Source: Botryllus schlosseri (taxonomy: Eukaryota). Taken from it: DNA of 64,000 nucleotides. The stretch is taken from the NCBI GenBank assembly GCA_051294905.1, contig CM119373.1:4156001-4220000 (forward strand). Reading direction: 5' to 3'. Position numbers and translations under genes: made by a program. Below are positions 12,033 to 52,105 of this stretch, piece by piece. How positions within the stretch are numbered: position 1 is the stretch's first letter; each line of letters opens with the position of its first letter. The notes under the pieces are model-generated. The model ran no database searches. It was not told where the DNA came from and was given only the letters and a program-made list of their open reading frames with translations.

Positions 12033-12681
12033 CATGCAACAATTCTGTCTTCATCTTTCCGAAGGAACATCACGAAGACTACGTTCTGTATAAACGTACT
12101 CTGTCGGGTATGGCGTCCTCCACCGTTTGTTTCTGGATAGGATCGGTAGATGGAATCAAGCCGGCAAAAGGATCAATTCTAAGTTACTGCACGCCGGGTG
12201 CGCCGGGTTTGTCCTGCAATACCATCGCAGCTTTTTTGAAGGGAACCAAAATCGAAGCGATTATAAATGGCAAACGCTGTACTTTGATATGACTCGAAGA
12301 ATTATTTATAGGACATACATATGTTTAGTCATGTCCAAGAATGCGGCAAGAATCTACATCAACGGTACCGAGATCGGAAACATACATGATATTCCAGCAG
12401 AAGTTGCTAAAGATGGGGTGCTCATATTTGGGCAAAATCAAGATGGTAAAATCAATGGTGATATTCCTGGGAAACCGGTAGATCCTCAACAGGGTTTTTA
12501 CGGCGAGATCGGTGGGATCCATATCTGGGATAGAGTTCTTAACGCAACTCAGATTAACCGTGCGACGAACGCCATACGGTGTGGCCCTGTAGATGATGCG
12601 TTCGTGATTATCAACCAATCGAATGCATGTGTGAAAGGTAATGTGATGACTGACTTTATAGAAACTTGCTTGAATGTGTAA
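12033..12681 (+). pseudogene. Pentraxin/LamG-like terminal exon with a 1-nt frameshift near 12278
   Basis: Acceptor TTTCAG at 12027-12032, phase 1, compatible with the EGF exon ending 7831. ORF 11963 (CNNSVFIFP...TVCFWI...SILSY) switches to ORF 12127 (YICL...IYING...GVLIFGQNQD...FYGEIGGIHIWDRVL), both pentraxin motifs. Aligns with the intact paralog at 47550. Confidence 0.8.
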
Positions 12682-20679: not shown

Positions 20680-22810
20680 TTTTAACATAGCCTACTTAAA
20701 ACACCCATGAATTGTACTTTCTGAATATGATAGCAACTGACAGTAGCTAATAATAAAAAGCGTCAGAAAGCGTGTTAAATTTGAGCACATGTCTTGATTA
20801 GTGAAAATTTTGAAGCCTCTGCACAGAGCCGAAATCAGGGGCCTGGTACCATCGACCTACCAGCTTTTTTATACGGATCGCGAGCACCAGAGCTGTAAAA
20901 ACTAATGGGTATCAAAATCCACAATTAGAACTAAATTTCTTTTAAAAATCCGCAACTAACTAACTAAAACACAATGTACTAGGTGTAATTATACCGTATT
21001 GCACATGAGCTAAGAAATATTAGAGACAGAATCGGCATTTCAGGACACCGAGTTTTTGAATTGGAAATGGGAGGGGGTTCAATCCCCAAAATCTACCATG
21101 GCTACATCACTTACATCACCGATAACTCAGAGATAGCAATGCTGGTTTTATGAACTTCACATAACGAAATACAAGGATCGCGACTCACTCCAAACGACGA
21201 CAAGTGATTTTTAGTTGTTGGCAACTATATATTTTTTAGATTGCGCGACTGGACCTAAACCTGTACCTAAAACCTACACTAACAATTCATCTTCCCCAAC
21301 TAGAACTATAAAACTACACAAGAAACAGTATTAAGATGATCGTCAACTAACTAGGTTGGCAGTTGGTTTTATTTCCACGCAATCCGGCCCGCGACGCAAT
21401 TTTCAGTGTGGATAAGGGATATTCAAAAATTACTTTTTTTCTTAAATCGTACTAGCTACTTGATAAAATAGTTAGGTTACCTAATTTAAGCCTGCACACC
21501 AAATTTGCTTTAATTCCAGCAAGTAGCCGCATTGCTACAGCAGAAGAGAGTTTTTCTATCTATTATGTAAAATACATAATAAAAAAATTGAAAATTTTTT
21601 GTTTACCCCATGAAACTGTTAGGTTGTCTATAGAAACGATGTTCGCCAAATTTGATTCAATTCCAACCAGTGGAAGCGGAGTTATTGCCATCGAAAAATT
21701 TTGATTATCAATAAAATAGTATTTACGGTGACCACTTCTTAATAATCACGTAAATAGGCTACTATTTTATTCAAATCCAAATTTTTAACGAGGACACGTT
21801 TAAAAAATCCTAAACGTTAGTTGATCGAAACTGAAAACAGTGACTTTGAAATATTTACTGGGAATTTTGTTGTGCTGACTAAACTAAAAAAAGGTCATCA
21901 TTCTGATTCGTCCGTCGTCATTCGTTCAACTCCCGAATGACCCACTTTTTTGGTGACTTTTGTGGTGTTGACTAAAAAAGTAAATGTAGAGCATCACTTT
22001 GATTTGACTCGAACTTCCGCATCACCTGATTCACGTCATTTTTGCCGATTTTCATTTCAGTTTAGGACGAATCCTCCTAAACGAGTACGTATTGTAACCC
22101 TTTCCTAAATCGACAGTAGTCGATTGTACAGTAGTACACGCACATTCGTGCAGTAGGCTACAGTGTCGGTTTCCCATCGCCATGATATCCACATATGCGA
22201 CCGTTGACAGCTGCTTAGAACAATTGAGAGCCACATATGTTACATGTCTGCCGCTTAGGAATATTGCTAATGTTATGTCGTCCTTCAGTGACATGTCCGT
22301 GGTTGTCGGAATATTGTGTTTACCGAACAACAACATAGACAGCAGCAACAAAATCAGCTTGACAAGGAATAGGCTTCCAATGAATTGTCAATGAATCATG
22401 CAAAGCAGCATTACCGCGAACATGAATTCTAATCTGATGATTGAAAGTATTCCATATTAGCCAACGGCTACCATCCACCTAGCCTACTTGTTATATTTTA
22501 TCACCTGGTCCGCGAGTACAAAGGTTACAGATCCATGGCCTACTAAACTATTAGAGGAACTTTTTGCCGTTAGATAGCGCTATGGTGATACCATCAGTCT
22601 AGGTGCTGTATCACTGTAATTCCGGGAGCTGGTTGCCACGTTAATGAACACTTTCAACGCTGAAGATAAGGTTTTGCATTGTCTATGAAAAGATGGGCAC
22701 CTTTTTCGAATCATGCTGCAAATGGTCTACGTTGGTAATACTCTTCGGAGGTAGGTATATTTATCTGTTGAACCTGCATTTATCTTAAATATAATGATGT
22801 GGGCGACGTG

Positions 22811-22915
22811 AGTAGTGTAGGTACCTGGATTTCGTGCAGGCCAATCAAATTTCGCCACGTCGCCTTAATTGCCACGCCTACATTGCCACATCATCCGCCC
22901 ATTGCCGCACCTATA
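22811..22915 (+). repeat. Left terminal inverted repeat (TGCCACATCATC subrepeats continue to ~23030)
   Basis: Exact reverse complement of 38262-38366; imperfect for a further ~16 bp. Confidence 0.95.
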
Positions 22916-23284
22916 GGACACCCCTTGCCACATCATCCGCCCATTATCGCACCTATATGACGCCCATTGCCACATCATCTACGCCACATCATCAAGCGCC
23001 ACGCCTATAGTGCCACATCATCCATCCACAATATCATGATTATGCGTACTGAGCTGTTTTTGAGAATATGAATTCCCCTGTAATACACTAAACGTTGAAC
23101 TAGATTTCATAACGTCATCACAGAGGAATCAACCAACGATATTGATCTAGGTTTTAGGTTTGAAGCCTGTAGTCACCGCATTTCATACGATTCAGCGCTT
23201 TTCATGTCTCCTCACACTTTACTCAGTCTCATTGAAATAGCATTGCATAGTGTATCAGTTCATTTATTTCGAAAAAAGAGCATA

Positions 23285-23767
23285 TCAATGATATCGTTGA
23301 ACGTTATTGCGTCGATTCGCGTGCTGAAATCCTCCGGATCGGTCGATGTTTCGAGGTAGTCCGCTTTGATGCCATCCGACGCTGCGATCCGAGTTCTTGC
23401 GTTCGATCTGACCGTTTTGTTTGATGTAGCGATCACTGGCTTGTAGTATAAACGATACGAGCGGAAGGTCGGGATTAGGAACAACTACGCTGGGCGAATA
23501 GATGACGAATTCGTCAGCCGGATTCAGAGGTTGATAATGCTCGATCCCGTCGCGAGTATACGTAACGACCAAACCTCCTTCATGCTTCAGAGTGGCTCGA
23601 TATTTCTGAATGACCCCGCTTGTGGCATGTACAAAGAGTTGATCCGAGGTCAATTCTGCTCCATTCGAAGCTTCGATACGTAATTTTGTGATGTCATTAA
23701 AAAGATACAAGTCTTTTCTATAGGGCCCCTGGGCCAGAATAGTATCTCCACGGATTGCTAGACTCAT
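23285..23767 (-). CDS. Hypothetical Polinton cargo protein (~160 aa from MSLAIRGD...)
   Basis: ATG at 23767, 17 bp after the IAP stop; globular-looking composition; minus-strand AATAAA just downstream. No family recognised; the C-terminus may be frameshifted. Confidence 0.5.
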   Translation of the reverse strand: MSLAIRGDTILAQGPYRKDLYLFNDITKLRIEASNGAELTSDQLFVHATSGVIQKYRATLKHEGGLVVTYTRDGIEHYQPLNPADEFVIYSPSVVVPNPDLPLVSFILQASDRYIKQNGQIERKNSDRSVGWHQSGLPRNIDRSGGFQHANRRNNVQRYH

Positions 23768-23783
23768 TCTTTGAAAAGAAATA

Positions 23784-24365
23784 TCAAACATAAGTACAAC
23801 AGTCATCACGCAATTCCACCTCGCCATCAAATTTAGTCGAGCCTCTTCTTATATTAGGTGTCGCATAACAGACATTACGAATATATTGCAACCCCTTCCG
23901 CTTGATGAGAAAAGGACACGCAGGATAAAACTTTGCATGCTCGAGCCAGGGATCATCGCACGGCAACCAATTTTGAAACAACCCTCCGCATGAGAAACAC
24001 TTTAAATGATCCTTATAGCCCAAATAGAACAATCCGCAGTCTGCGAGCTCGGTTCCGGAGGTATTGATATTATCCGGCCACCGCATGAATGTGCTTAGTC
24101 TACGAGCATAGCGTGTCATGTTATAGAAAACGGGATCATTCAATGGGGAAACAGTTACATCTCTATGCTTCGCATAGCATTCACAAATCTTTTCCCCTCT
24201 GTTATTTATCATAGCTTGGTACTGTTCAATGGGACCCATCCGAGTTTCATCTTCGCCTATTCCTATGCTACTTGTGTTACCGATGCAAGCGCAGTTGAAT
24301 GTAGCGTAATTTGTAGGGTCCACACTACGCTTAGGTAGCGAATCGCTTTGATCAATGTTCGACAT
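23784..24365 (-). CDS. Inhibitor-of-apoptosis-like protein with a single BIR domain (193 aa)
   Basis: YARRLSTFMRWP...LADCGLFYLGYKDHLKCFSCGGLFQNWLPCDDPWLEHAKFYPACPFL is a full BIR with CX2CX16HX6C; no RING domain seen. Confidence 0.95.
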   Translation of the reverse strand: MSNIDQSDSLPKRSVDPTNYATFNCACIGNTSSIGIGEDETRMGPIEQYQAMINNRGEKICECYAKHRDVTVSPLNDPVFYNMTRYARRLSTFMRWPDNINTSGTELADCGLFYLGYKDHLKCFSCGGLFQNWLPCDDPWLEHAKFYPACPFLIKRKGLQYIRNVCYATPNIRRGSTKFDGEVELRDDCCTYV

Positions 24366-25939
24366 TGCTATCCGAATTGATATACTCTCATGATCAGTAT
24401 GCTTTATACCGATATTGAGCTATGCACCGTTGAAATATGTGCTTGGTACCGATCGAATGATAGGCCCCCTAGGTCGTATCACGGAAAATTAGAACGTCGA
24501 CTGCTCACAGAAAAAAGCCACGTAGCTCATATCCGTTCCTGGTACGTGTTATCAATAATTAGAATGTTAGTAAGAATGCCACGAGTACAATCACGCGGTG
24601 ATGATTAATACCTAAAAAATGACATCTTGACTCATGCATTAATTTAAAAAAATTAAACTATAGTGTATCGGAACTTAGTTTTACTTTACTGAGATTAGTT
24701 TTACTTTTCAACTAACTTGTCTGTCGATACATTCATTTAATTACGATCCCGAGAAGTCGGATCGATTCCCATAATATAACGATTCAGTGCCGACCTTATG
24801 TCTTATACTTTAGCTGACACTTACTCAGTCTCATTGAAATAGCATTGTATAGTGTACGAGCTCATTTATTTCGAAAAAGAGCATAATATATCAATGATAT
24901 CATTGTGCGTCATTGCATCGATTCACTTGCTGAAATCCTCCAGATTGATGTTTCGATGTCGCTTCACGAGTTCCATTCTTGTATTCATATATATCAACAA
25001 GCAGCTATGCAAATCCACAGCTTAGATAACTAGGGCTCTTGTATGTCATTAACATTATAGACAGCCCTTCGACGATATTCAACTGGCATTGATGCTTTCG
25101 ATACAGCGCAGTATGTATAACGTTACGCTGATCAATTCAATTTCAACAATGGGACCCCCGCACAATTATATGGTCGGATTTTCGTTGAATATTGACGACA
25201 CCCACAAATCGAAAGATCTCTTTTTCCTGCACATCTATGATGCAATTATCCTTCCAATGACTACGAATAACTTGAGATTCCGCAGGATTAATATCCGAAT
25301 CAAATAATACGAGCGTATCTTTTCCAGCTTTCAAAACTTACACTGACGCGTTCGGTCTATGTCGCAACACTACAATATGTGGCCATACAAAACGATGTAT
25401 AGTTATTTTTTGTAGTACCATCCCTACGACTTATTTCAGATCGCGGTTTACTGAGTAGAGCTTAATACTAATACCTGCATAATTTTTTGCATGTCTAGAA
25501 TAAGGGTAATTAAATCCATAGTAAAACGCCAGCGGCGACTAATAACGTTATAATGTAAGCTGCGACGGTGCTACTATAATGTTAGGAGCTATTAAAGCCG
25601 AATACGCTGAAGTATAGCATAGATTTTGCATATAAAATGTATACACAAATTTCCTGTTAAGGGTAGCCTCTGCGAAGCTGCTTATGCCTCGATGATCATA
25701 GTACTTATGAGCTATTGGATAGCGCATATACAATGTATCATATAGAACTTCGTCACTTTCGGATAGTACATATACCCCTGGGATAGAACTTAGACGCTAT
25801 AAAGATCGATGTTCGCCTACGAATTCTCGCTTTACTCATGTCGTATGCTCGATAAATTGTAAGTTGCGGCGAGCAACTCATTTTTAAAGTCCCTAAGACG
25901 CTATTGAAATGAACTCTGACTCGCTATTATCCTCAAACC

Positions 25940-26410
25940 ATGGAATTATCACGAGTATCACCTTCGCTCACTGAAGAAAAGGATGAAATTACATCCGGAG
26001 CATATTCCTTGGCGAGGAATTATATCATCTACGAACTCGACGACTCATGCGTTAAGGCAAATACGAAAGCAGAGAGAACCTTACGGCGAGTTGGGGATGA
26101 AATGTTTGAGCGACACCGAACTATCGTAAACGCGCTCTCTAAACGTCTTCGCTACTGTGATGTAGAAGTCGATGAAAAATATGAAGAATATTCACCCGAC
26201 GAGCGAATGTTCCTGATGATAGCTGATGGAATTTTCAAAGATACCCAAGAAAATTGGGGTAGGATTGTCTCTCTTTTTGTGGTCGCTAGCATTCTTGCTC
26301 GGAATAAGGAGGATGAACATCGCGGTGATCATATAGAAGGTATCATACAGACAGTTGGGAGTTACATTGGTAGTAGAAGACGAAAGTGGATAGCGCAAAA
26401 CGGAGGATGG
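25940..26410 (+). CDS. Bcl-2 family (Mcl-1/Bcl-2-like) protein, exon 1
   Basis: BH4-like SLARNYIIYEL, BH3 TLRRVGDE, BH1 ENWGRIVSLF, BH2 start WIAQNGGW followed immediately by the donor GTAAGC at 26411. Confidence 0.93.
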
Positions 26411-26655
26411 GTAAGCGATTTTACAAGCCTTACTAAGGATTTAGGAATTATTATCTATAGCTCGAGGTACTACGATCCCCAGAACCCTTATCATCCCTCG
26501 AACCTTAGATTCCACCTTATAATTTTGTTCTCAACTTTTCCCACAAAGCACTGTAATTTACTTTCCAAGCGCAGCGAACTTCGAATTACCTAACAAGTAG
26601 GCTACGCTAACTTTCTGTAAGATTTGGAAGGCTAACATTTTTATTATTGTTTCAG

Positions 26656-26775
26656 GACAGTTTTGTAGGATATTTCGATAACACAACATTCGGTAACAAT
26701 AAAGTTTGGAAGAGCCTCATGTTTGTTGGAATTGGACTGACGTCTATTGCAATGGCATTAACACGACAGCGATAA
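26656..26775 (+). CDS. Bcl-2 family protein, exon 2 (rest of BH2 plus C-terminal TM anchor); 196 aa spliced
   Basis: Branch point GCTAAC at 26631, T-rich tract, TTTCAG acceptor; translates DSFVGYFDNTTFGNNKVWKSLMFVGIGLTSIAMALTRQR*. Confidence 0.88.
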   Translation, partial: DSFVGYFDNTTFGNNKVWKSLMFVGIGLTSIAMALTRQR

Positions 26776-26993
26776 GTACAGCTCGAAAGGGCTTCAAAAA
26801 ACGCCCAACAAAACTTTCAAAGATTTCCATTCTTCAAAATAGATCGATCACGGGTGGCGTCAATAGTGGTTTTCGTTGCTATGGGAGCGATATGTTTACG
26901 TATAAGCAATATCGAAGTGCATTGAGTTATGGTTATTATAAAAGGATTGTGCTTGATGATGGAATTCATACATTGCCTTTATCTCTGTAATAA

Positions 26994-27611
26994 ATGGATC
27001 GAATACGTACATTGCATGCTCCGTTTCGGATGATCGTAGCTGGTCCGAGCAGTAGCGGGAAGAGTTATTTTACTTATGAGTTGGTGAAGAACGCAGAGAA
27101 GATGATTAGACCGGCTCCTGAAAAAATTGTATGGTTGTATAATAATTATCAGGCGTTATACGATAAAATGAAAGGGGTAGAATTTTCGCAAGGGCTCTCC
27201 GAGCTCAAAAAGTTACAGAAAGGAAATAGGCACGTTCTCTTGGTGATCGACGACATGATGACGGAAGCGAAAGAGGCCAGAGATCTATTCACTCGATACA
27301 GCCATCACGCAAAGATTAGTGTCGTGTTCATTTGTCAAAATTTATTCTATAGGGGCCAAGGCTTTCGGGATATGACCCTGAGCGCGAGCTATATCGTGAT
27401 ATTTAAAAATCCCCGTGATGCGAGTCAAATCAGTTTTCTTTCACGTCAAATGTTCCCGGATAAAGCCGGATTCCTTACGGAGGCTTATAAAAAGGCAACT
27501 CGAAAACCGTTCTCGTACATACTGGTCGACGTGACGCAAGAGACAGACGAAAATTATCGTCTTCGCAGCAAAATATTCCCACATCAAAAGTTGACGGTAT
27601 ATCAAGAATAA
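26994..27611 (+). CDS. Polinton DNA-packaging ATPase (A32/FtsK-like), 205 aa
   Basis: Walker A GPSSSGKS, Walker B LLVIDD, SHH...VVFICQNLF and FKNPRD motifs. Confidence 0.95.
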   Translation: MDRIRTLHAPFRMIVAGPSSSGKSYFTYELVKNAEKMIRPAPEKIVWLYNNYQALYDKMKGVEFSQGLSELKKLQKGNRHVLLVIDDMMTEAKEARDLFTRYSHHAKISVVFICQNLFYRGQGFRDMTLSASYIVIFKNPRDASQISFLSRQMFPDKAGFLTEAYKKATRKPFSYILVDVTQETDENYRLRSKIFPHQKLTVYQE

Positions 27612-27646
27612 ATACAGCTCGCGCTACAGATTTTAGGGCATTCAAC

Positions 27647-28055
27647 ATGTCGAAGAGGGGAAGTAACATATCTCGAAAACGATTGAGCGACTATCACGTT
27701 AAATTAAAACTTTTGAAAAACGCTAAAGGGAAACAGCGAAAAGAACTTTTATCGAACAATCAATTTTTAAGTTGCGTTTGCCAGTGCGTTCATAACTTGG
27801 CTTCGGGGACAGTACGTATCTCCCCGTCTAGAAAGTTGAGGCTTGGAAAACACAAATCCGATATCAGACAATTGCTGGCGCAAAAAACTCGCAGAGGTCA
27901 ACGGAGGGTGCTACAAAAGGGTGGATTCCTCTCAGGTATAAAAAATTATGATAAAATAGCAACTTTTTTCTAATCAGTCTCTTTTAGCTATATTAGGCGC
28001 TGCAATCCCCGTCATCGGGAGTCTGTTGGGTAAACTTTTCGGAAAGAATGCGTGA
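27647..28055 (+). CDS. Small basic Polinton core protein with a C-terminal amphipathic helix; predicted spliced (exons 27647-27935 and 27988-28055, 118 aa)
   Basis: KLKLLK...CVCQCVHNLASGTV...HKSDIRQL...QKGGFLS; removing GT..AG 27936-27987 gives QKGGFLSAILGAAIPVIGSLLGKLFGKNA*. Confidence 0.75.
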
Positions 28056-28386
28056 ACTACAATTCCCCGCATTTCGAAGCAAGGACGAATGGGAAAAGAA
28101 ATTTGATAAACATATATCGAAAATTAAAAGTTCTCCATTGAATGCTTCCGAGAAACTAGCTCTGTATAGGCATGGTATTGCTCAACTGAGAAACTTGAGA
28201 AAAGACGTAGACGCAGCGACCGCCCGCCCTCCCGCCGCACACACGGGGCTCGCGAGCCCCGTAGCGAAAGAAAAGCGCCCGCAAAAGAAACGCCCGCGCC
28301 GGATTCCACAACCTTCGTTTCCCTGGCTTTATAAGAGACAGCGTAAGCCTAATCCCCGTATATACGGGAAAGAATGGGAGACGTAG
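28048..28386 (+). CDS. Basic hypothetical Polinton protein (112 aa)
   Basis: Overlaps both neighbours in the compact gene array; K/R-rich C-terminus. Confidence 0.6.
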   Translation: MRELQFPAFRSKDEWEKKFDKHISKIKSSPLNASEKLALYRHGIAQLRNLRKDVDAATARPPAAHTGLASPVAKEKRPQKKRPRRIPQPSFPWLYKRQRKPNPRIYGKEWET

Positions 28387-29371
28387 ACTATTTTGATCCG
28401 AAACAGCCCAAATCGTATAGGGGCGCTTATTTGCAAAAGGAAAAAGAATGGCTTAAAGGACAAGATACTTATACTTTTCATTTTCCGTTACGTAAGAAAT
28501 TTAGGCGTGAACGTGTAGTGGTCTCCGGTATCAATGCTCAGTTTCAGAGCGATTTGATGGATCTGCAATCTATTTCAAAGTACAATAGCGGTTTTCGTTT
28601 TGTGGTGGTCGTGATTGATATTTTTAGCAAATACCTTTGGATGATAGCGATTAAAAATAAAACTGCTTCAAGTATGATTTCTGCTTTCAAACGTGTGTTT
28701 CGTGAACGCGTACCGTTAGTGTTACAAACCGATCAAGGTAGCGAATACACCAATCGCGCTTTCCAGAACTATCTAAAGGAGAACAAAGTTAGATATTTCT
28801 ATACGAGGAGCGAATTAAAATCCTCTGTCGTCGAAAGGGTGATTCGTACTATGAAGGCGTTATGTATCGATTTTTCACAAAAAATAACACGAGGAATTAC
28901 GTGAGCGCTCTCGATGACTTTACTTACTCCTACAACAGGACGTACCATCGTAGCATTGCCATGGCCCCAAACCAAGTGAATTCGTCTAATCAGGAATCGG
29001 TTTGGAGAAGACTTTACGGGTTTCAAGAAGCTAAACAACCCGACCTCGCTGTAGGAGTACCCGTCCGTATATCGAAAATTCGAAATCTTTTTGAGAAAAG
29101 CAGCCTACCCAACTGGCAACGGGAAATTTTCTATATCGCAGACGCCCAAAAGGGAGATCCCCCAATGTATCGCTTACGTGATTACGGTGGTGAAGTCATA
29201 CAGGGTAGATTTTATAGAGAGGAGCTCCAACGCGTAAAAGAACCGCAAACTTGGCGTGTCGAGAAGATTATAAGAAGGCGTAAACGCGCGGGACGAGAAC
29301 AGTATTTAGTGCGCTGGTTGGGATATGGAAGTGGATTCGACAGCTGGGTCGATAAGAAGGATATCGTCTAG
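28374..29371 (+). pseudogene. Retroviral-type (rve) integrase with C-terminal chromodomain, frameshifted at ~28860
   Basis: D-D-E motifs QSDLMD / LQTDQGSEY / SVVERVIRT in ORF 28374. MYRFFT...YNRTYHRSI and chromodomain WRVEKII...YLVRWLGYGSGFDSWV in ORF 28862. Only 2 nt (TT) separate GCG from ATG, i.e. one base is missing. Confidence 0.93.
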
Positions 29372-29534
29372 TCGGAACCTTTATCAGTTTTTGGCGCAAC
29401 TAGTAATCATACTGGTCATCGTATCGTTCTCTCTCTATAATCTTACCATTTCGAATGGGAACAAAGAGCTTTGGATATCACTGCTCTCCTCTTGCGTTGG
29501 TTATATGCTTCCGAATCCCAAGCTCAAAATATGA
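29325..29534 (+). CDS. Small two-helix membrane protein of Polintons (69 aa)
   Basis: Hydrophobic FLAQLVIILVIVSFSLYNL and LWISLLSSCVGYMLPNP, a pattern recalled from other Polintons; its stop overlaps the next ATG (ATGA). Confidence 0.65.
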   Translation: MEVDSTAGSIRRISSSRNLYQFLAQLVIILVIVSFSLYNLTISNGNKELWISLLSSCVGYMLPNPKLKI

Positions 29535-30340
29535 GCTACGTCACGCTATTTTCGAACGCTTCCATGGATAAATTTCCTGATAATACAACAGCGAGTTATT
29601 GCGTTGAACTGGACGTCCCGAAAAACGTGGAAGATACAGAAGTTTCTCTGGCTGAGATCTCCTTCCCTACGGATTATCAAAAACAGTATAGGATCACGAA
29701 GAATAGGTATGGGATCAGATCGCAAAAGAGAACAAGAAAATTTCATTTTAAATTGGGAGAATACGACTCGTTATATGACATGTATAGATCGTTGGAAAGA
29801 GACAATCCTGATGCAAAAGTAACATGTTTCCCTGAAAATCATAGTATGTCTATCTCTATACCTCATAACGAGGTAACCGACAAATTGCGACCAGAGACGG
29901 ACATAGGGCATAGTAGCTTGCTACGCCTCGGAGAATTGTACGGTGCTCTTATGTATAAGGAAACGAAGGAGGAGTTATTGGTGTTTCATTTCCCGAATAC
30001 TAATTGTACATTGTGGAATTATTTTTTCACCGAGGGTATCATTCATTTGAACTTTCGCATGCGACATGATCCGACTATCGATTTCGTTTATGTTCATTGT
30101 AATATCATTGAGCCACAAGAAGATAGCGGTAGGCTCTTACCGTTGTTACGCGTCGTACAGGTAAACGATCGTAAATCATTTTCGAAATATTACACGAAGC
30201 CTTTTTATTTCCCTGTTAATATAAATAGGCTAGAACGTGTCGAAATATCGCTACTTGATGAGAAGGGACAGAAAATACCCTTTCGAAGTTCTCCTTCGAG
30301 TGTTGTATTGCATTTTCGTAGACGGGGAGTTGCATTATGA
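29531..30340 (+). CDS. Minor capsid (penton/PX-like) protein 1, 269 aa
   Basis: YVTLFSNASMDKFPDNT..., VSLAEISFP, FVYVHCNIIEPQ..G..LPLLRVV, YFPV...IPF...VVLHFRR: Polinton single-jelly-roll motifs. Start taken at the ATG at 29531. Confidence 0.88.
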   Translation: MSYVTLFSNASMDKFPDNTTASYCVELDVPKNVEDTEVSLAEISFPTDYQKQYRITKNRYGIRSQKRTRKFHFKLGEYDSLYDMYRSLERDNPDAKVTCFPENHSMSISIPHNEVTDKLRPETDIGHSSLLRLGELYGALMYKETKEELLVFHFPNTNCTLWNYFFTEGIIHLNFRMRHDPTIDFVYVHCNIIEPQEDSGRLLPLLRVVQVNDRKSFSKYYTKPFYFPVNINRLERVEISLLDEKGQKIPFRSSPSSVVLHFRRRGVAL

Positions 30341-31059
30341 AATATATTCATATTACGTCACACGAGTCTGATTTTACTATCGATCTCGCGAAACCGATAG
30401 ATTCTGGTGAATGGGAGATAGGGCTTGCCGAGTTGTCTTTTAAAAATAATTTTCAGCCCACGTTCGAGCCTTACGACGGCTTATTATGGTACGTGAATGA
30501 TGCGGAAGGCGATAATAATTTTTATTATTTCCCGGCTGGTGATTATCATGATAAAATTAGTTTGATGAAGCGTATCAATCACGATCAGAAAAAAGCACGA
30601 TTTATTTGGGTAGATGGTTCTGGTCCGGTCTTGATAGCGGGACCCTACAAGAGTTCCAGCGGTCCGAGACTTTTCATGGATAATAGAAACCCCGTTCTCA
30701 GAGGAGGCGCTCGTTCGGAGGTAGAGCTAGATGGTGGATTACATAGACGAAGAAAAATTCACTTTCAAGGGGAACCTGTGTCCGTGACCAACGTTTTAGT
30801 TTATACGGATGTCATCACACCTCAAATTGTAGGTGATACGAGTGCGCCTCTACTACGCAATATCCGCGTTACGACAGGAATAGATGAATATCAGCATATG
30901 CTATTCAAAAAAATATATTTCTTTCCTCTGAATACGGAGCGAGTAAGCGAGATACGCGTTATGCTTCGTGATGATAAAGGCGAAGCTATAAAGTTTGGGA
31001 ACGCGCCTCTTCATCTCACACTTGCTTTGAGACATCATGAGGAGTCATTATTGCTGTGA
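30337..31059 (+). CDS. Minor capsid (penton/PX-like) protein 2, 240 aa
   Basis: FTIDLAKPI..GEWEIGLAEL, VLVYTDVITPQIVGDTSAPLLRNI, YFFPL...IRVMLRDDKGEAIKF; paralogous to the preceding ORF. Confidence 0.88.
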   Translation: MKYIHITSHESDFTIDLAKPIDSGEWEIGLAELSFKNNFQPTFEPYDGLLWYVNDAEGDNNFYYFPAGDYHDKISLMKRINHDQKKARFIWVDGSGPVLIAGPYKSSSGPRLFMDNRNPVLRGGARSEVELDGGLHRRRKIHFQGEPVSVTNVLVYTDVITPQIVGDTSAPLLRNIRVTTGIDEYQHMLFKKIYFFPLNTERVSEIRVMLRDDKGEAIKFGNAPLHLTLALRHHEESLLL

Positions 31060-31408
31060 TCGGGAGGCGTTCAGAAACTATTATCACCAACAGAGCGGTG
31101 GTGATATCAATTTTTTTCGGGGTAAAGTGCAGAGAGGTCATGGACTTGGAAACTTATTTCGTTCGTTCGGAAGAAGCGTTATGCCCCTAATTTCGAAAGG
31201 TGCAAAATCACTCGGGAAGCGTCTACTACATACCGGTGCGCAAGTAGCCTCTGATGTTCTTAATGGAGAGAATGTCGGTGATAGTCTTAAAATACGCGGC
31301 AAAGAAGCCGCTGGGAACGCTCTCGATTCTTTACTGAGAAAAAGAAAAATGCCAAGACGGGGTCGTAAAATCGCGAAAAAGAGACGTCGCAAAGATATTT
31401 TCGATTAA
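31037..31408 (+). CDS. Conserved Polinton core/membrane-active protein (cupiennin- or adenovirus pVI-like), 123 aa
   Basis: YYHQQSGG...QRGHGLGNLFRSFGRSVMPLISKGAKSLGK, an amphipathic helix after QxGxG motifs; basic C-terminal tail. Function is inference. Confidence 0.75.
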   Translation: MRSHYCCDREAFRNYYHQQSGGDINFFRGKVQRGHGLGNLFRSFGRSVMPLISKGAKSLGKRLLHTGAQVASDVLNGENVGDSLKIRGKEAAGNALDSLLRKRKMPRRGRKIAKKRRRKDIFD

Positions 31409-31457
31409 ATATATATTGCACGGCGATAAGCATCATTTGTTACTTGAGACTTGATAG

Positions 31458-32735
31458 ATGGCGGAGTTAATTCATGTACAGTCCCCGGAGGGGGTACATC
31501 CCTCATTGGATTTATTTCACATTCCCGCGACACAGACTAGCGTTGAAAAGAAAAGAATCATCAAGATAGCGCCGATTTCGAACAACTCTAGTGTGATAAC
31601 ATTCCGCTTTGAAGGCTCAGAAGACTTTAACGATTTGAGCGAGAGCTATTTCTTATTTCATTTACAATTAAAGAAAGATGGCGAAGCAATCGGACCCGAC
31701 GATGATGTTGGAGTTGTAAATAATATCTTGGATTCCTTGATTTCTCAACTACAAATTAAAGTCGCTAACGAAACTTTGAAACAAGATATAAAAGTACAGT
31801 GTTATTCGTCCTATCTGCACAATTTATTCGCTCCGCTTGACGTGCAAAGTACCACACTGAGGGCCTCAGGATGGAGAAAAGATACTTTAGGAGAAATGAA
31901 TACGATTGGTGGAACTAACGCCTCGGCTAACAAAGGATATTACAACAGGAGTAAAGCCTATAAGGATGATAACGTGGTGGAAATACGTGCAAAAATCCAT
32001 CACGGACTATGTCTGCAAGACCGCTACATCCTACATGACGTGCCTCTCGAGTTTGAGCTTACCTTGAATCCGAAAAGCTTTTTCATGATGGGAGATGCTG
32101 GCGGTCAATTCACCTTAACGAAAAAGGAATTACAGTTATGTAGCGTACGAGTCAGCGACGATGTGAAGACAGCGATGATGGTGAATGCCCAGGCGAAATA
32201 TCCGTATATCGACATGAAATTGATCACCCGAACATTTGCGGCTGCTACGACGCAGATAGATATCGGGAATCTATATAGCGGGACTCTACCTTCTCGCCTA
32301 ATCATCGGAATGGTAGCTACGAAAGCCTTTCAAGGAGATGTTACGAAAAATCCTTATAATTTCATACACAATAATATGCAACGACTCGAACTGAAACTGA
32401 ACGGATTTCTGATTCCGGAGGGAGGTTATGAGCTAGATTTCGATAAGGGTCATTACACGGAGCTTTACCATAACCGGATTGAGGGTACGGGTGCAATGGA
32501 GAGAAACACAGGACTCCTAACACCTGAAGAGTTCGCTAGTGGTTTCTGTCTACTGGTTTATAATTTGCGCCCTGATGATTTGGATGATTGCTTTGACTTA
32601 CAAAAGAGTGGTGCCTTAAGTTTACGGATCACATTTCCTGCTGGCGGGCTAACAGCGGAAACTACTTTGCTCTGTTTCATGGAATTCCAGAAGCTATTGC
32701 AAATCAGTAGCAGTCGTAAAGTGACCGTGCTATGA
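31458..32735 (+). CDS. Major capsid protein (double jelly-roll, PY/hexon-like), 425 aa
   Basis: LIH..S.E.....LDLFHIPATQTSVE N-terminus; VNNILDSLISQL; LPSRLIIGMV...AFQGD..KNPYNF; typical size and position before the protease. Confidence 0.92.
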   Translation: MAELIHVQSPEGVHPSLDLFHIPATQTSVEKKRIIKIAPISNNSSVITFRFEGSEDFNDLSESYFLFHLQLKKDGEAIGPDDDVGVVNNILDSLISQLQIKVANETLKQDIKVQCYSSYLHNLFAPLDVQSTTLRASGWRKDTLGEMNTIGGTNASANKGYYNRSKAYKDDNVVEIRAKIHHGLCLQDRYILHDVPLEFELTLNPKSFFMMGDAGGQFTLTKKELQLCSVRVSDDVKTAMMVNAQAKYPYIDMKLITRTFAAATTQIDIGNLYSGTLPSRLIIGMVATKAFQGDVTKNPYNFIHNNMQRLELKLNGFLIPEGGYELDFDKGHYTELYHNRIEGTGAMERNTGLLTPEEFASGFCLLVYNLRPDDLDDCFDLQKSGALSLRITFPAGGLTAETTLLCFMEFQKLLQISSSRKVTVL

Positions 32736-33187
32736 ACGGGGATGAAATAGACCAAATATTGTGGTGCTGCGAGTCAACAAAACATATTTTCCTTGGCACA
32801 TTTCCTATCGATCGACTGCCGAGGCGACCCCCTCCTCCTTATGCTATCGTGATCAATTATGACGAAGCTCGAAAAATCGGAAGTCACTGGATATGCATTT
32901 ACGCGGATGAGGATGAGACACATTTTCACGATAGTTTTGGCTTAATGCCACTGAAATACGAGATTGCCTGCTTTATAGAACCAGAAAATTATACCTGCTC
33001 TATAAAGCGTCTGCAGCACAAACGTTCCAGAGCTTGCGGTCATCATTGTCTAAGCTTTATCGTCCATAAGGCGCGCGGATGGAGTACGGAACGTTATTTA
33101 AATTCCTTCGGTGAAGATCATCGCAAGAATGATTCGATCGTGCGACGCTTCGTCAAGGAGCTGAAGCAAGAATATGAAATTGTGTAA
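32732..33187 (+). CDS. Adenain-like cysteine (maturation) protease, 151 aa
   Basis: IVINYD...GSHW (His), HDSFG (Asp), LQ...ACGHHC (Gln, Cys); AATAAA at ~33199. Confidence 0.93.
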   Translation: MNGDEIDQILWCCESTKHIFLGTFPIDRLPRRPPPPYAIVINYDEARKIGSHWICIYADEDETHFHDSFGLMPLKYEIACFIEPENYTCSIKRLQHKRSRACGHHCLSFIVHKARGWSTERYLNSFGEDHRKNDSIVRRFVKELKQEYEIV

Positions 33188-33574
33188 ATGTATATGCGAA
33201 TAAAATCAATAGTTTCAAAGTTTGCTTAGTACGTTTAAGGGCGATATTCGCTACGTTCATTATAGCAATCATCTCAAAGTAGTAGACTCTAAATCAGCAG
33301 TAGCGACTTGCTTTCGGTTAGGTGATAGTGGCTACATATTACCATTATCTAGCAAGAACCAGGAATTTGTATTGAGTGACTTCGCTCCTACAGTAAACGC
33401 AGCTTACATTACGGCGGTACTGAACATCGAGTAATAAGTGGGACTATGCAGGCTACCCTTAATACGAATTTGCATTTTGCTGGTACAATCTATGCTATAG
33501 TTGAGCGACTTTGATACGACCTCGGCACACTTCTTTGATATAGCTGCGCAAAGATGTAGCCTTGAACGCTGGCT

Positions 33575-36500
33575 TGCCTTGTCATTATATGCTTGTAACT
33601 AGTTCCAGGCTTGCGGTGCTAGTCTTCTTGGCTGCATGAAATAGGATGTTTCAGCTTAAAACTCAACGCATTAGCATGCCGAATTTGTAACCATGGCGAG
33701 ATTCGAGTATTAAGCGAGGCTAGATAGTCTACCCTTGACAGAGAACTTGCATATACATTCGAATTTATGCGACTTCGGCTATATTGCCGGTTAACATTAT
33801 AGCCGTGCACAGAACTCATTATTACGTTATTAGGTATTTAAATGATGCGATATAGGGGAAATCTCGGTGTAATTCAATCTGCGCGCATTATCCATGTATG
33901 CTCCAATGCGTTTTGCGGCTTTAGTATAGGTATTGGATCTAATATATTCTATAAAACATGTACGTTGCTATATATTTATCTTAATCCGAAGTGCATTGCT
34001 GCATCGAAAAATTATAGCTATATGCGGTACGCTGTCGATTTTTCAATATTAGTCAAGAAATGAAATAGCCCACCTTCAGTGTTGCGTAATCTGCCTTGTC
34101 ATTATATGCTTGTAACTAGTTCCAGGCTTGCGGTGCTAGTCTTCTTGGCTGTGTGAAATAGGATGTTTCAGCTTAAAACTCAACGCATTAGCATGCCTAA
34201 TTTATAACCACAGCGAGATTCGAGTAATAACCGAGCCTAGATAGTCTACCTTTAACAGAAAACTTGCATATACATTCGAATTTATGCGACTTCGGCTATA
34301 TTGTCGGTTAACATTATAGCCGTGCACAGAACTCATTATTACGTTATTAGGTATTTAAATGATGCGATATAGGGGAAATCTCGGTGTAATTCAATCTGCG
34401 CGCATTATCCATGTATGCTCCAATGCGTTTTGCGGCTTTAGTATAGGTATTGGATCTAATATATTCTATAAAACATGTACGTTGCTATATATTTATCTTA
34501 ATCCGAAGTGCATTGCTGCATCGAAAAAATTATAGCTATATGCGGTACGCTGTCGATTTTTCAATATTAGTCAAGAAATGAAATAGCCCACCTTCAGTGT
34601 TGCGTAATCTGCCTTGTCACTATATGCTTGTTCCGGGCTTGCTTGCGGTACTAGTCTTCTTGGCTGCGTGAAATAGGATGTTTCAGCTTAAAACTCAACG
34701 CATTAGCATGCCTAATTTATAACCACAGCGAGATTCGAGTAATAACCGAGCCTAGATAGTCTACCTTTAACAGAAAACTTGCATATACATTGGAATTTGT
34801 GCGACTTCGGCTATATTGTCGGTTAACATTATAGCCGTGCACAGAACTCATTATTACGTTATTAGGTATTTAAATGATGCGATATAGGGGAAATCTCGCT
34901 GTAATTCAATCTGTGCTCATTATCCATGTATGCTCCAATGCGTTTTGCGGCTTTAGTATAGGTATTGGATCTAATATATTCTATAAAACATCTACGTTGC
35001 TATATATTATATATCTTAATCCTAAGTGCATTGCTGCATTGAAAAATTATAGCTATATGCGGTACGCTGTCGATTTTTCAGTATACTCAAGAAATGAAAT
35101 AGCTCATCTTCAGTGTTGCGTAATCTGCCTTGTCACTATATGCTTGTTCCGGGCTTGCTTGCGGTACTAGTCTTCTTGGCTGCGCGAAATAGGATGTTTC
35201 AGCTTAAAACTCAACGCATTAGCATGCCTAATTTATAACCACAGCGAGATTCGAGTAATAACCGAGCCTAGATAGTCTACCTTTAACAGAAAACTTGCAT
35301 ATACATTCGAATTTGTGCGACTTCGGCTATATTGTCGGTTAACATTATAGCCGTGCACAGAACTCATTATTACGTTATTAGGTATTTAAATGATGCGGTA
35401 TAGGGGAAATCTCGCTGTAATTCAATCTGTGCGCATTATCCATGTATGCTCCAATGCGTTTTGCGGCTTTAGTATAGGTATTGGATCTAATATATTCTAT
35501 AAAACATGTACGTTGCTATATATTTATCTTAATCCGAAGTGCATTGCTGCATCGAAAAATTATAGCTATATGCGGTACGCTGTCGATTTTTCAATATTAG
35601 TCAAGAAATGAAATAGCCCACCTTCAGTGTTTCGTAATCTGCCTTGTCATTATATGCTTGTTCCGGCCTTGCTTGCGGTGCTAGTCTTCTTGGCTGCGTG
35701 AAATAGGATGTTTCAGCTTAAAACTCAACGCATTAGCATGCCTAATTTATAACCACAGCGAGATTCGAGTAATAACCGAGCCTAGATAGTCTACCTTTAA
35801 CAGAAAACTTGCATATACATTCGAATTTGTGCGACTTCGGCTATATTGTCGGTTAACATTATAGCCGTGCACAGAACTCATTATTACGTTATTAGCTATT
35901 TAAATGATGCGATATAGGGGAAATCTCGCTGTAATTCAATCTGTGCGCATTATCCATGTATGCTCCAATGCGTTTTGCGGCTTTAGTATAGGTATTGGAT
36001 CTAATATATTCTATAAAACATCTACGTTGCTATATATTATATATCTTAATCCTAAGTGCATTGCTGCATTGAAAAATTATAGCTATATGCGGTACGCTGT
36101 CGATTTTTCAGTATACTCAAGAAATGAAATAGCCCACCTTCAGTGTTGCGTAATCTGCCTTGTCACTATATGCTTGTTCCGGGCTTGCTTGCGGTACTAG
36201 TCTTCTTGGCTGCGCGAAATAGGATGTTTCAGCTTAAAACTCAACGCATTAGAATGCCTAATTTATAACCACAGCGAGATTCGAGTAATAACCGAGCCTA
36301 GATAGTCTACCTTTAACAGAAAACTTGCATATACATTCGAATTTGTGCGACTTCGGCTATATTGTCGGTTAACATTATAGCCGTGCACAGAACTCATTAT
36401 TACGTTATTAGGTATTTAAATGATGCGGTATAGGGGAAATCTCGCTGTAATTCAATCTGTGCGCATTATCCATGTATGCTCCAATGCGTTTTGCGGCTTT

Positions 36501-37436
36501 AGTATAGGTATTGGATCTAATATATTCTATAAAACATGTACGTTGCTATATATTTATCTTAATCCGAAGTGCATTGCTGCATCGAAAAATTATAGCTATA
36601 TGCGGTTCGCTGTCGATTTTTCAATATTAGTCAAGAAATGAAATAGCCCACCTTCAGTGTTGCGTAATCTGCCTTGTCATTATATGCTTGTTCCGGCCTT
36701 GCTTGCGGTGCTAGTCTTCTTGGCTGCGTGAAATAGGATGTTTCAGCTTAAAACTCAACGCATTAGCATGCCTAATTTATAACCACAGCGAGATTCGAGT
36801 AATAACCGAGCCTAGATAGTCTACCTTTAACAGAAAACTTGCATATACATTCGAATTTGTGCGACTTCGGCTATATTGTCGGTTAACATTATAGCCGTGC
36901 ACAGAACTCATTATTACGTTATTAGCTATTTAAATGATGCGATATAGGGGAAATCTCGGTGTAATTCAATCTGCGCCCATTATCCATGTATGCTCCAATG
37001 CGTTTGCGGCTTTAGTATAGGTATTGGATCTAATATATTCTATAAAACATCTACGTTGCTATATATTATATATCTTAATCCGAAGTGCATTGCTGCATTG
37101 AAAAATTATAGCTATATGCGGTACGCTGTCGATTTTTCAGTATAGTCAAGAAATGAAATAGCCCACCTTCAGTGTTGCGTAATCTGCTTTGTCACTATAT
37201 GCTTGTTCCGGGCTTGCTTGCGGTACTAGTCTTCTTGGCTGCGTGAAATAGGATGTTTCAGCTTAAAACTCAACGCATTAGCATGCCTAATTTATAACCA
37301 CAGCGAGATTCGAGTAATAACCGAGCCTAGATAGTCTACCTTTAACAGAAAACTTGCATATACATTCGAATTTGTGCGACTTCGGCTATATTGCCGGTTA
37401 ACATTATAGCCACGCACAGAACTCATTATTACGTTA
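33575..37436. repeat. Tandem array of ~515-bp units (~7.5 copies) inside the Polinton
   Basis: Anchor ATGATGCG recurs at 33842, 34359, 34874, 35390, 35904, 36420 and 36934; near-identical units in two alternating variants. Confidence 0.97.
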
Positions 37437-38261
37437 GCTATTGGAGAAATCTCAACGTAAATCAATCTGCGTTCACAATTCGCGTAAGCTAATGCTGCAT
37501 CGAGAAATTATAGCTACATTTAGTTTAAATTGGCACGAAAATACATTGATCTTACCTTATGCCTGCGATGCCTGCATCCCTGCGCACATGGCAATACTTG
37601 TAATAGAAATGTGAAGTTTTCAGAATGCGAATTGCTTTACGTCGGAACTAAACATTCTAATTCGTAACGCCAGCGCGGCGTTTTCTTGGAAACGCAACTT
37701 TATTTAGAATGTTCTAATTCACTTTGTCGATGTGGCGCAACTTTTTTGGAATCGTAAGCAACTGTATTCGTGGCACATTTACACGCGTCAATTTCTTGGA
37801 ATAGTATTCAGCAATATGCGCGTGAGCTTTCGCGTCATTGTAGACATTTATGGTGGCGATATCTGCATTATCAAGTTGCATTCGCAGAATTCCTCAAAAT
37901 CATTGACTAATTAATGATGACACAGGTGTTATAAGTGCACACGAACATAGTCTTACATTTATGTGTTATTACTCGAAAAAGGTGTTGTCTCGGAATTTAA
38001 GAGAGAATCGGCGGTTATATTCTCAAAACAGCTCAATACGGCTAGTTTGCTCAATAGCCTGGTGGTGAGCGATGTGAAATTATACCCAACCAAACCAGGT
38101 TCGATTCTAGCTTAGGTAAGTTTTGACGTGGCAATGAGTGACATAGGTGTAGCAATCGACATCGCGCGGGTTGATGATGTGCAGCGTATAGATGCGGCAA
38201 TCAATGCGGTGATGATGTGGCAATGGATGATGTGGCACTATAGACGTGGCAATGGGTGTGG

Positions 38262-38366
38262 TATAGGTGCGGCAATGGGCGGATGATGTGGCAATGTAGG
38301 CGTGGCAATTAAGGCGACGTGGCGAAATTTGATTGGCCTGCACGAAATCCAGGTACCTACACTACT
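38262..38366 (-). repeat. Right terminal inverted repeat
   Basis: Reverse complement of 22811-22915; followed by the TSD GACGTG. Confidence 0.95.
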
Positions 38367-40427
38367 GACGTGCCCTATTGGCGCTTCAAGTTATTGTGGT
38401 ATGACATTATGCTGCTTACATTGATGGATAGTATTCGGACCCCTCTAGTCCGAACCTTAGTTACGCCCGTGTTTTAGGCTATGATACGACGGTGATCTTG
38501 TAATACTCAAACGCTAGACGTACTGTATAAAAACAGTGGGACCTATGTGAGTGCCTATTACGCGCTAGCTTTGAGGATAGTCATTGTTGGTAGTAGAATT
38601 ACGAAAAACTATACGCCTGGAGCACTACAGAAAACGCGGTAACAATAAAAATTGCAAAGGACTGCTACGCACACTCACTCAATCACCATGATACTTGTCC
38701 TCATGATGTGTACATCATCGAGGTAAAACAGATAGATGTATTTTAACGACGATACCCACCTTTAACACCGTAATGAGCCGCTTATGACTTACAATTTACA
38801 CGTGTAAGGCCATCACAATTGCTAGCGACAGCACTCACTTCCTCGATCGTGCGTACAGTCATAAACATTACGAGGCCATATCACTGTGTGTCAATTGCAG
38901 ACTGTAGGCATAAGAATACCATAGTTCTTTAGATGGAACCTGACGCCTTCAGCCCCTCGCGGTAGGTTCTTCACGCAAGTGATGTAATATTTATGTTGCT
39001 AAAAGCCGTTTGTTTTGGATACGGCCTTACAGTCGATACATCAATCGCTAGCTGGTATCCTAATACTGCGTCGCTGTTCGTACGCCGTCTTTACAACAAA
39101 ACAAAAAAGACTGAAGGAAGCGAATAAAAATAGCGTGTAAGGCGTGAAAAGACAGACAGCCGAGAAGAGAAGCATCTGCCACTGTTGTAGGTGGATGTTA
39201 GATTGATAAACAATACTTGGTCGTGTCGACATCCTGATATCTGTTCATTACACCCCGATCTGTCGTGTAATTTACCATCAATAGTGTAGGCCTACGTTGT
39301 GTGCCGCGAGCATATGAAAAAATAAAACCGCGGATTAAGGTGATAAGTTTGATCTACCGTATTACAACATGGGGAAGTTTAATGTTGTATGTGATGGGAC
39401 AATTGAAAAGAAAATTAGCAAATGTTCGCCTTCATAACTTGCCAGTAAAGTATACAATGTTCTTCGTTGGTGAATATCTTCCTATATCAATGCCCAGATT
39501 TCAACATCTAGAAACCGCAAACAATTACAAACTCTATACCACACAGGAACTGTGAACTCATCGAATATGAACGGCTGTAAGAAATCCTACTTTGTAAGTT
39601 GCGCACGCTTTACTTTATGCGTAGAGTGAATACTAATTAGCCCTCAAGTTTACCGGACTACGACCAGACATATCGATCGTGCCTTCCGTCACATGATACC
39701 CCATTTTGTCGCTTGCATTTTTATGTTATCCTCTGTTACGTTTCATTCAGTGTGCATGCCTCCTCTCCACATCGGCTAGGGCCTTGGCCCACGTATATGT
39801 TTGATGTCGAAGACTACTTCAGGTCAATTCGACACCTTCCTATATTTTCGTCGTATCGCAGTCTTGTGGTATTTTGAAATGATGAAATTATTATTAAACT
39901 GATCGTGACTATGGCTAAGACGTGGCGTATAGTAAGCAGTGGTCAAAACGATTTGATAGCTGTAAATAAACCAATGGGCCTTTGCATGACTGTTAATGAA
40001 ATGGATATGCAGAAATGTAATAAAACTATCCACATAGTGCAGACCTGACCATTCCAATATATCTGGCATTAGAGTTACACCTTGATCCGAAAATTCGCAA
40101 GGGTGCTATAGTAAGGATAGGTCCATCGTCGGTGATTAATCATATTACTGCTCTATTTCTCACAGGACATGAATGGTGAGACACAGCATTTTGTCAATGG
40201 ATCTACATTCAATACTGATTGTGGATTGTGGTGATGTATAAGACATTAATTTCTGATATGCGACAGTTGTCCATTTTCAAGTGTTGAACCTAACTGTAGA
40301 CTGATGTCTTCGACTTTTATTTCCAGACTTCGTAACATGGTGTTATGTAGGCCTGTCTGTAAACCATGTCTAGTTTAATCTGAAGGGTATTTTAAGCGTA
40401 AGTGTCAAGGTTCAAGTTTTAAAATCA

Positions 40428-47390: not shown

Positions 47391-47549
47391 ATTGACCAAA
47401 AAAACGGGTGCATTATCATATGTATGATTTGAGTGAGTGTCATGACATCCGCGGAATCCACGAGACTGGCTCTTGGAACCCCTAGTGTTCCATGGAACGC
47501 CGGTCCAGAACCACCGCTTTAAAGGTCAACGACACTCTTGTGTTTTCAG

Positions 47550-51938: not shown

Positions 51939-52105
51939 AGTAGTGAGGTTTGGTCAAATATACGCAGACCAATCCCAGAAGGCCACGTCGCCTTAATTGC
52001 CACGCCTACATTGCCACATCATCCGCCCATTGCCGCACCTATAGCACGCCTATTGCCACATCATCCACCCATTGCTATATCATCGCTGCATTGATTTCCG
52101 CATCT
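51939..52105 (+). mobile_element. Terminus (TIR) of a second Polinton-related element; the other end is not in the window
   Basis: Starts AGTAGTG; 51982-52043 is identical to 22854-22915, at the same +43 offset from the terminus. Confidence 0.85.

Follow-up and report, generated by a model that had tools for sequence, protein, structure and literature searches.

The 64,000-nucleotide stretch of Botryllus schlosseri DNA considered here (NCBI GenBank assembly GCA_051294905.1, contig CM119373.1, positions 4,156,001 to 4,220,000 of the forward strand; hereafter the window) carries a mobile element of the Maverick/Polinton (adintovirus) type, 15,556 bp in length (window 22811-38366), which encloses homologues of two regulators of cell death, an inhibitor of apoptosis (IAP) and a Bcl-2 protein. 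The element displays the inverted ends with an AG/AGT end motif and the 6-bp target duplication that are hallmarks of this group, as well as an integrase (though split), a packaging ATPase, a major capsid protein, and a likely protease. It lacks the protein-primed B-family DNA polymerase typical of Mavericks, and is a deletion derivative rather than an autonomous member. The arrangement described in a sequence-only reading of the window, in which a single-BIR, RING-less IAP gene on the minus strand and a Bcl-2 gene on the plus strand are both open and flank a spacer of about 1.6 kb, was borne out by profile searches (Table 1). The same reading called the pair intact, which holds for the two frames and fails for the element, with its deleted polymerase and split integrase.

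Two cell death regulator homologues within one Maverick

The Bcl-2 gene is predicted to contain an intron that divides BH2 at a position described for cellular bcl-2 genes (PMC7527217; here and below, published work is represented by excerpts). Its second exon scores 79 against the C-terminus of a Styela clava relative, compared with 18 +/- 4 for 2000 shuffled sequences (0/2000 reached 79) and 14 for read-through of the intron, and its best 19-residue hydropathy is 1.64. A 217-amino-acid open reading frame (ORF) obtained by a naive call was rejected as intron read-through. The protein has the multi-motif features of the Bcl-2 family, a helical bundle with BH3, BH1 (NWGR), and BH2, and a model of exon 1 (pLDDT 88) found zebrafish NRZ as its best Foldseek match (TM 0.78). 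The nearest named relative is XP_039252627 of Styela clava (49%, E 2e-37), and in a tree of 57 rows, from which P0003 and P0006 (<100 residues) were left out and which contained no labelled pro-death rows, the element protein fell in a 5-row group with the Styela clava gene (support 100/96). Since the intron was kept, the gene would have been taken up as genomic DNA, presumably from an ascidian lineage. The 60 matches listed in a profile search were all Bcl-xL, Mcl-1, or “Bcl-2-like 4,” the 60 listed in a single-sequence search were all NRZ, Mcl-1, A1, Bcl-2, or one nameless protein, and a moderately close match belongs to a cluster named NR13-like anti-apoptotic. A word-index protein search with exon 1 returned 0 matches. 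A separate protein of 3,949 amino acids, P0017, contains nine stretches matching exon 1.

The IAP retains the Cys/His zinc ligands of the BIR domain, and its best single-domain PDB matches are BIR constructs of cIAP1/XIAP (E 4e-25). Its DDPW-x-EH stretch agrees with the cIAP1/XIAP construct 3uw4, while the residues just before this stretch and the aromatic pair just after it differ; the assignment of the residues that form the type II BIR peptide-binding groove is presumed in this comparison. The C-terminal RING ubiquitin ligase of the cIAP, XIAP, and baculovirus types is missing from the protein. No RING was found by Pfam, and the minus-strand frames downstream of the BIR all contain three or fewer Cys per 45 residues. 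The sole match of a word-index protein search, P0154, is 95% identical to the IAP, equal in length, ends at the same residue, and is likewise RING-less. These features of the two proteins support the view that both genes are captured homologues of death regulators, residing within one Maverick and keeping the hallmark residues of working domains.

Transcription units and antisense RNA

Four of 24 listed sequencing runs, none of the 24 being on record as RNA, were aligned to positions 22400-33450 at 90% likeness. Run X23 is a raw single-cell run, of which about 3% was read and 281 reads aligned, 21 of them at 99% likeness or higher; X4 is a DNA run; for X6 and X17 an RNA origin is only a guess, X6 may contain DNA, and depth derived from their contigs is a poor measure of expression. 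In X17, two IAP bins reach depths of 10.7-12.7 vs. 0.8-1.0 in three spacer bins, whereas X4 covers the IAP and the spacer alike, and X6 gives a smaller contrast than X17. On the minus strand, the depth of X23 is greatest at 23138-23506; 14 reads of this run, of a sibling-type sequence, have a loose T-run beside 23263. The IAP-side unit appears to be transcribed and polyadenylated, with a signal that comes mostly from sibling copies.

The start codons of the IAP and Bcl-2 genes are divergent and 1,574 bp apart, an arrangement that the sequence-only reading described as a divergently transcribed pair. Co-regulation of the two is not supported: the spacer contains a duplicated minus-strand 3' end with a poly(A) signal, and the RNA-like signal of the IAP bins lies far above that of Bcl-2 exon 1. 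A minus-strand RNA begun near the Bcl-2 promoter would encounter the AATAAA of the spacer before reaching the IAP gene, and a promoter common to the two genes is improbable. Beyond the IAP gene and the frame that follows it, ORF159, the first AATAAA lies at about 23268, and these two likely share one 3' end. ORF159 lies in the region of highest RNA-like depth in the element, and its ATG is preceded by a pyrimidine-rich AG, a possible splice acceptor. The 3' third of ORF159 is possibly read in a different frame (23263-23484), which ends on the poly(A) signal and may represent the true C-terminus. No Pfam or NCBIfam family was found for ORF159, for which there is an Atlas lead of 0.83 only, and its single-sequence model has a pLDDT of 37. 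The idea that the spacer contains a broken gene was not accepted, with 6 stops in 187 codons and a likeness to ORF159 not above that of shuffled sequences. The two copies of the 3'-end module form direct repeats (23211-23357 and 24814-24959) that bracket a cassette of IAP and ORF159. At these repeats, joints in X4 skip about 1.6-1.7 kb, and may reflect cassette-free copies or mis-joins between the repeats.

A spliced antisense RNA spans the block of virion genes from the ATPase to the protease (27118-33450, minus strand). Its joints, which have consensus GT-AG ends on the minus strand, number four in X6, three in X17, and one read in X23, with none in the DNA run X4. The longest ATG frame of its exon chains is 50-66 codons, and the RNA is apparently non-coding. 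Because frames beginning with ATG reach no more than 66 codons and, of the three strongest minus-strand donors in the virion block, two are those used, the RNA may represent cryptic splicing of read-through transcripts as easily as a regulator.

Polymerase remnant, tandem array, and structure of the element

The polymerase was lost through an internal deletion that left its tail behind. The 218 bases that separate the Bcl-2 stop from the ATPase bear a presumed likeness to a polymerase C-terminus, and a motif from this frame retrieved 119 metagenome loci in a scan that covered 28 of 64 parts. Among 107 frames with the motif, 91 of the 104 having a closed end stop within 25 residues, and 104 of the 119 loci match the polymerase fragment of the window by tblastn, with 20 also holding the ATPase. 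The 16 frames with at least 700 residues upstream of the motif are all homologous, and five of them pass the PF03175 cut-off. A profile of these 16 long ORFs aligns the remnant with positions 824-900 of 901 (E 1e-16), as its sole match in the window, and a short second frame covers the start of the remnant. In related loci (e.g., L011, L063, L066, and L076), this tail forms the end of a polymerase gene that lies immediately before the ATPase, and relatives of the ATPase, capsid, and protease genes adjoin the polymerase. The sequence-only reading had described the element as polB-less, which is correct as to function and incomplete as to sequence, given the persistence of this tail at about 26762-26987. 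The tail was not recognized by Pfam, Atlas, or a phage collection, and a regular-expression scan for polymerase motifs was uninformative, as it also missed 16/16 controls. In viral contigs, the polymerase-tail motif gave 0 matches and a separate motif scan gave seven loci, none of them related; related-locus scans with capsid, ATPase, and polymerase-tail queries returned no match.

The remnant begins at about 26762 and overlaps the last Bcl-2 codons, which places the break where the Bcl-2 coding sequence stops. An AATAAA at 26989 comes next, after the polymerase stop, and the Bcl-2 gene would now use the poly(A) signal of the polymerase. Bcl-2 may have replaced the polymerase, or may have stood upstream of it until the deletion joined the two. 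Position 26804, near this junction, falls within an X17 contig that has a further 89 letters to its end.

Within the tandem array that follows the virion genes, alternate units show the greater likeness (up to 99%). The median length of ten related polymerase frames with both ends closed is 4.3 kb, vs. 3.9 kb for the array, which, to judge from this one element, may restore a packageable length. An earlier idea, that the polymerase once occupied the position of the array and left an orphan promoter driving the antisense RNA, was abandoned once the tail had been located upstream of the ATPase.

At the left end of the element, the flank is continued by a contig of the DNA run X4 that departs from the window sequence exactly at 22810, as expected of an empty site, and the insertion site looks polymorphic. 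This contig and the perfect target duplication argue for recent movement of the element. Sibling copies differ in the region where the integrase is split. A word-index protein search with the capsid protein gave one match. The 269- and 240-amino-acid ORFs are presumably minor-capsid (penton-like) proteins, a designation that follows their position and the gene order we take as usual, and the protease, which has no family match, is likewise named from presumed gene order. An Rfam search found no family inside the element. Elsewhere in the window, a lone, diverged Maverick-type end is present at 51939-52290, with an AGTAGT start near 51940 and 89% likeness to the end of the element over 110 nt. 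Pentraxin/laminin-G-like host ORFs, about 70% alike in DNA, lie one on each side of the element (12289-12681 and 47492-48190). The segment 54979-64000 contains nested repeats of about 200 bp and a 1,628-nt perfect inverted repeat (57866-59493/59538-61165); the latter adjoins a 100-N gap (61166-61265), and the duplicated sequence on its two sides could result from faulty assembly or represent a palindromic element.

Table 1. Features of the Botryllus schlosseri element, in window coordinates.
Feature	Position	Strand	Basis or remarks
Left 6-bp target-site duplication	22805..22810	.	Identical 6 bases directly 3' of right end
Left terminal inverted repeat	22811..22934	+	Begins AGTAGT; 124 nt, 4 mismatches vs. 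right copy, first 105 identical
3'-end module, AATAAA at about 23263-23268; likely poly(A) site of IAP/ORF159 unit	23211..23357	-	Signal scan and single-cell reads
ORF159, directly behind IAP stop	23285..23764	-	ORF call; from first ATG 23285-23827, 180 amino acids
IAP, single BIR, RING-less, intronless, 193 amino acids	23784..24365	-	PF00653, E 1.4e-18, residues 89-153
Second copy of 3'-end module, inside spacer, AATAAA at about 24865-24870	24814..24959	-	83% identity by blastn to 23211-23357
Bcl-2 homologue exon 1, 157 codons; BH3, BH1 NWGR, first half of BH2	25940..26410	+	PF00452, E 1.2e-20
Bcl-2 intron (predicted), 245 nt, GT-AG, conserved BH2-splitting position	26411..26655	+	Starts right after TGG of GGW motif
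Bcl-2 exon 2, 39 codons; remainder of BH2 and predicted membrane anchor	26656..26775	+	Homology to Styela clava C-terminus
Protein-primed DNA polymerase remnant, last ~75 codons in two frames, now in Bcl-2 3' untranslated region	26762..26987	+	16-sequence profile
Packaging ATPase	26994..27611	+	PF04665, E 8e-9; in 20/119 related loci
Spliced antisense RNA, introns 32114-32994; 29577-32062 or 30213-32062; 27118-29446	27118..32994	-	GT-AG joints
Two small core-region ORFs, 108 and 112 amino acids	27647..28386	+	First has relatives in 4/119 loci
Retroviral-type (rve) integrase with chromodomain, split over two frames	28374..29371	+	PF00665 and PF00385
ORFs of 69, 269, 240, and 123 amino acids	29325..31408	+	Relatives in 5, 2, 3, and 3 of 119 loci; no Pfam family
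Major capsid protein (double jelly roll), open, 425 amino acids	31458..32735	+	PF21738 weak, E 0.02; P0001 77-78%; in 12/119 loci
Likely capsid maturation protease, open, 151 amino acids	32732..33187	+	Relatives in 12/119 loci
Tandem array, 7.5 units of about 515 bp, 92-99% alike, 3,868 bp	33575..37442	.	Repeat analysis
Right terminal inverted repeat	38243..38366	-	Repeat comparison with left end
Right 6-bp target-site duplication	38367..38372	.	Perfect match to left copy

Precedents and predicted role of the gene pair

The expectation of the sequence-only reading that anti-apoptotic homologues occur in Polinton-type viruses agrees with a report of Bcl2 and IAP homologues as accessory genes of adintoviruses (Starrett et al., 2021, PMC8502044). 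The integrase, packaging ATPase, capsid block, and inverted ends of the present element resemble those of the adintoviruses and animal Mavericks of that study, from which it differs in having both genes on one element, a retained Bcl-2 intron, and a polymerase deleted to its tail; the Bcl2 and IAP labels of Supplementary Figure S2 stand on separate lines of the text layer, and their co-occurrence on one map is possible. Intact vertebrate Mavericks share the (AGT)2 end motif, the 6-bp target duplication, and a size range (12.7-24.6 kb) that includes the present element, and those of Xenopus tropicalis also carry their core genes on a single strand; however, they possess a full polymerase and intronless genes, instead of a polymerase tail, a Bcl-2 intron, and a split integrase (Barreat and Katzourakis, 2021, PMC8097293). 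Bcl-2 and IAP homologues are likewise combined in African swine fever virus (A179L and A224L), a large, autonomous cytoplasmic virus unrelated to Mavericks, in which their function was tested (PMC5618007). The planarian Burro LTR retrotransposons are also mobile elements with BIR and BCL2-like domains, although these reside within one retroelement polyprotein rather than in separate genes of a DNA element (PMC6431247). The vNr-13 gene of the herpesvirus of turkeys parallels the Bcl-2 gene in its two exons, host-like intron, and membrane tail, and in the false truncated protein that results from an unspliced reading, but belongs to a herpesvirus, is 64% identical to the host gene, and was studied experimentally (PMC7199394). 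In the portions represented, 10.1101/2024.03.25.586562 offers a general remark on anti-apoptotic homologues only, and a coral polintovirus preprint does not mention BIR or Bcl. Within literature that included few subscription papers and from which some supplements were outside the scope, neither both genes on one Maverick, nor Mavericks of ascidians, nor spliced antisense RNA over Maverick virion genes was found described.

The suggestion that the pairing is unusual stands in part. A BIR was found in one of the 119 related loci (L045) and Bcl-2 in none, of which only 13 are at least 8 kb in length and few cover the accessory arms, and no BIR or Bcl-2 was found among 21 ORFs upstream of the polymerase, taken from 8 of 11 related loci examined. 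In L045, a metagenome contig, the BIR domain (1485-1697) lies about 1.2 kb from a Maverick polymerase tail. African swine fever virus and Burro nevertheless provide precedents, and the pairing is less surprising than first thought. It does not demonstrate an infectious phase, and the real lytic phase or germline effect proposed earlier finds no support in a copy without a polymerase and with a split integrase. The pairing itself is already known from other viruses and mobile elements; the features that merit attention are the polymerase slot occupied by an intron-bearing Bcl-2 gene, an array matched to it in size, and the antisense RNA.

The account that we favor, by a modest lean and not with assurance, is that the element is a helper-dependent, polymerase-deleted provirus of the Maverick/adintovirus type, with two genes, likely of host origin, that are predicted to shield the carrier cell from death through parallel routes. 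Since an internal deletion removed the polymerase, replication would likely rely on a helper copy. The Bcl-2 homologue is predicted to reside on a membrane and bind the BH3 helices of pro-death partners, thus serving as a BH3 sink, and the RING-less, one-BIR protein, putatively expressed from a separate transcription unit with a 3' end common to ORF159, is a predicted decoy for caspases or IAP antagonists. A block at two levels of one pathway, as first proposed, borrows the mammalian scheme and is not supported, the ascidian genomes examined being without caspase-9 and Apaf-1 (PMC10959488); the two proteins would instead act on parallel death routes rather than at two steps of a caspase-9 pathway. 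Both genes may have been selected in the replicating parent family against death caused by linear DNA ends, integration, or virion production.

Several observations weigh against this account. Most of the RNA derives from other copies, since only 21/281 raw reads align at 99% likeness or higher. Relative to DNA, the X17 signal of Bcl-2 exon 1 does not exceed that of the spacer (0.27 vs. 0.17-0.38), the joint of its intron is absent among 15 of 18 joints listed, and an X6 contig (26044-26718) crosses the intron unspliced, though it could represent DNA, pre-mRNA, or antisense RNA. Tests for protein-level constraint are weak: differences between Bcl-2 and P0153 fall in 4/49 family-conserved columns vs. 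17/79 others (p 0.053), the same comparison with P0003 gives p 0.75, and differences between the IAP and P0154 occupy 7/86 N-terminal vs. 2/107 other positions (p 0.08). At position 97, the present copy deviates from a family-conserved residue that P0153 keeps. Finally, structures of the pro-death proteins BOK and BAK also match the Bcl-2 model (ranks 22 and 38), and pro-survival entries abound in the PDB.

The weak Bcl-2 RNA without a splice joint among those listed and the non-significant constraint tests, together with the deleted polymerase and split integrase, would also be expected if the genes were passive cargo, useful in an ancestral virus and now carried by young defective copies in which they look intact only because insertion was recent; spliced antisense transcription across the virion genes would be in keeping with silencing of such an element. 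We consider this unlikely, if still worth serious thought, as homologous Bcl-2 pieces of 78-84% identity, and so 16-22% diverged in protein, retain open frames and motifs over the stretches covered, and the IAP bins are about 10-fold above the spacer in X17. The transcription and polyadenylation of the IAP-side unit that appear in the single-cell run X23 are consistent with a drive at the cell level or a host benefit, whereby the integrated genes favor the germline or stem cells that carry them and no particle phase is needed. The more than 10 BIRC2-like genes of a botryllid genome (PMC10542563) and the IAP protein in oocyte test cells (PMC8278520) point in the same direction, and such an effect would help explain the enlarged IAP families of ascidians. 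Both this effect and its part in that enlargement seem improbable to us, because the site looks polymorphic, contrary to domestication of this copy, and the capsid, ATPase, and protease frames remain open.

It is also conceivable, at a still lower probability, that no block of death is involved, with the Bcl-2 protein being pro-death or acting outside apoptosis (in calcium regulation or autophagy) and the BIR protein serving in signaling or as a dominant-negative form of host IAPs. The fold cannot tell pro- from anti-apoptotic members. A BIR protein without a RING is incapable of ubiquitination. Ascidians, without caspase-9 and Apaf-1, also possess a Bcl-2-like protein, in Ciona, that could not be assigned to a class (PMC10959488). 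These points are outweighed in our view by the best sequence and structure matches, which are pro-survival members, and by the moderately close match within the NR13-like anti-apoptotic cluster.

Returning to the helper-dependent provirus, a broader and decidedly speculative extension is that there exists a class of polymerase-deleted Mavericks in which a host Bcl-2 gene occupies the polymerase slot, an array refills the genome to capsid length, capsids and cell survival are exchanged with a helper for replication, dormancy is imposed by antisense RNA, and the elements serve to disperse IAP and Bcl-2 genes across ascidian genomes. The array and the lost polymerase match in size, a lead on packaging limits, and the spliced antisense RNA is a lead on latency; neither was found described for Mavericks in the literature searched, and both could be accidents. 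Accessory death blockers count among the arguments for a virus phase of animal Mavericks, a phase that this copy does not itself demonstrate. In an invertebrate chordate with a death pathway devoid of caspase-9 and Apaf-1, the present element indicates a route by which such genes may arrive, as genomic DNA with an intron kept, and their survival beyond the loss of the polymerase.

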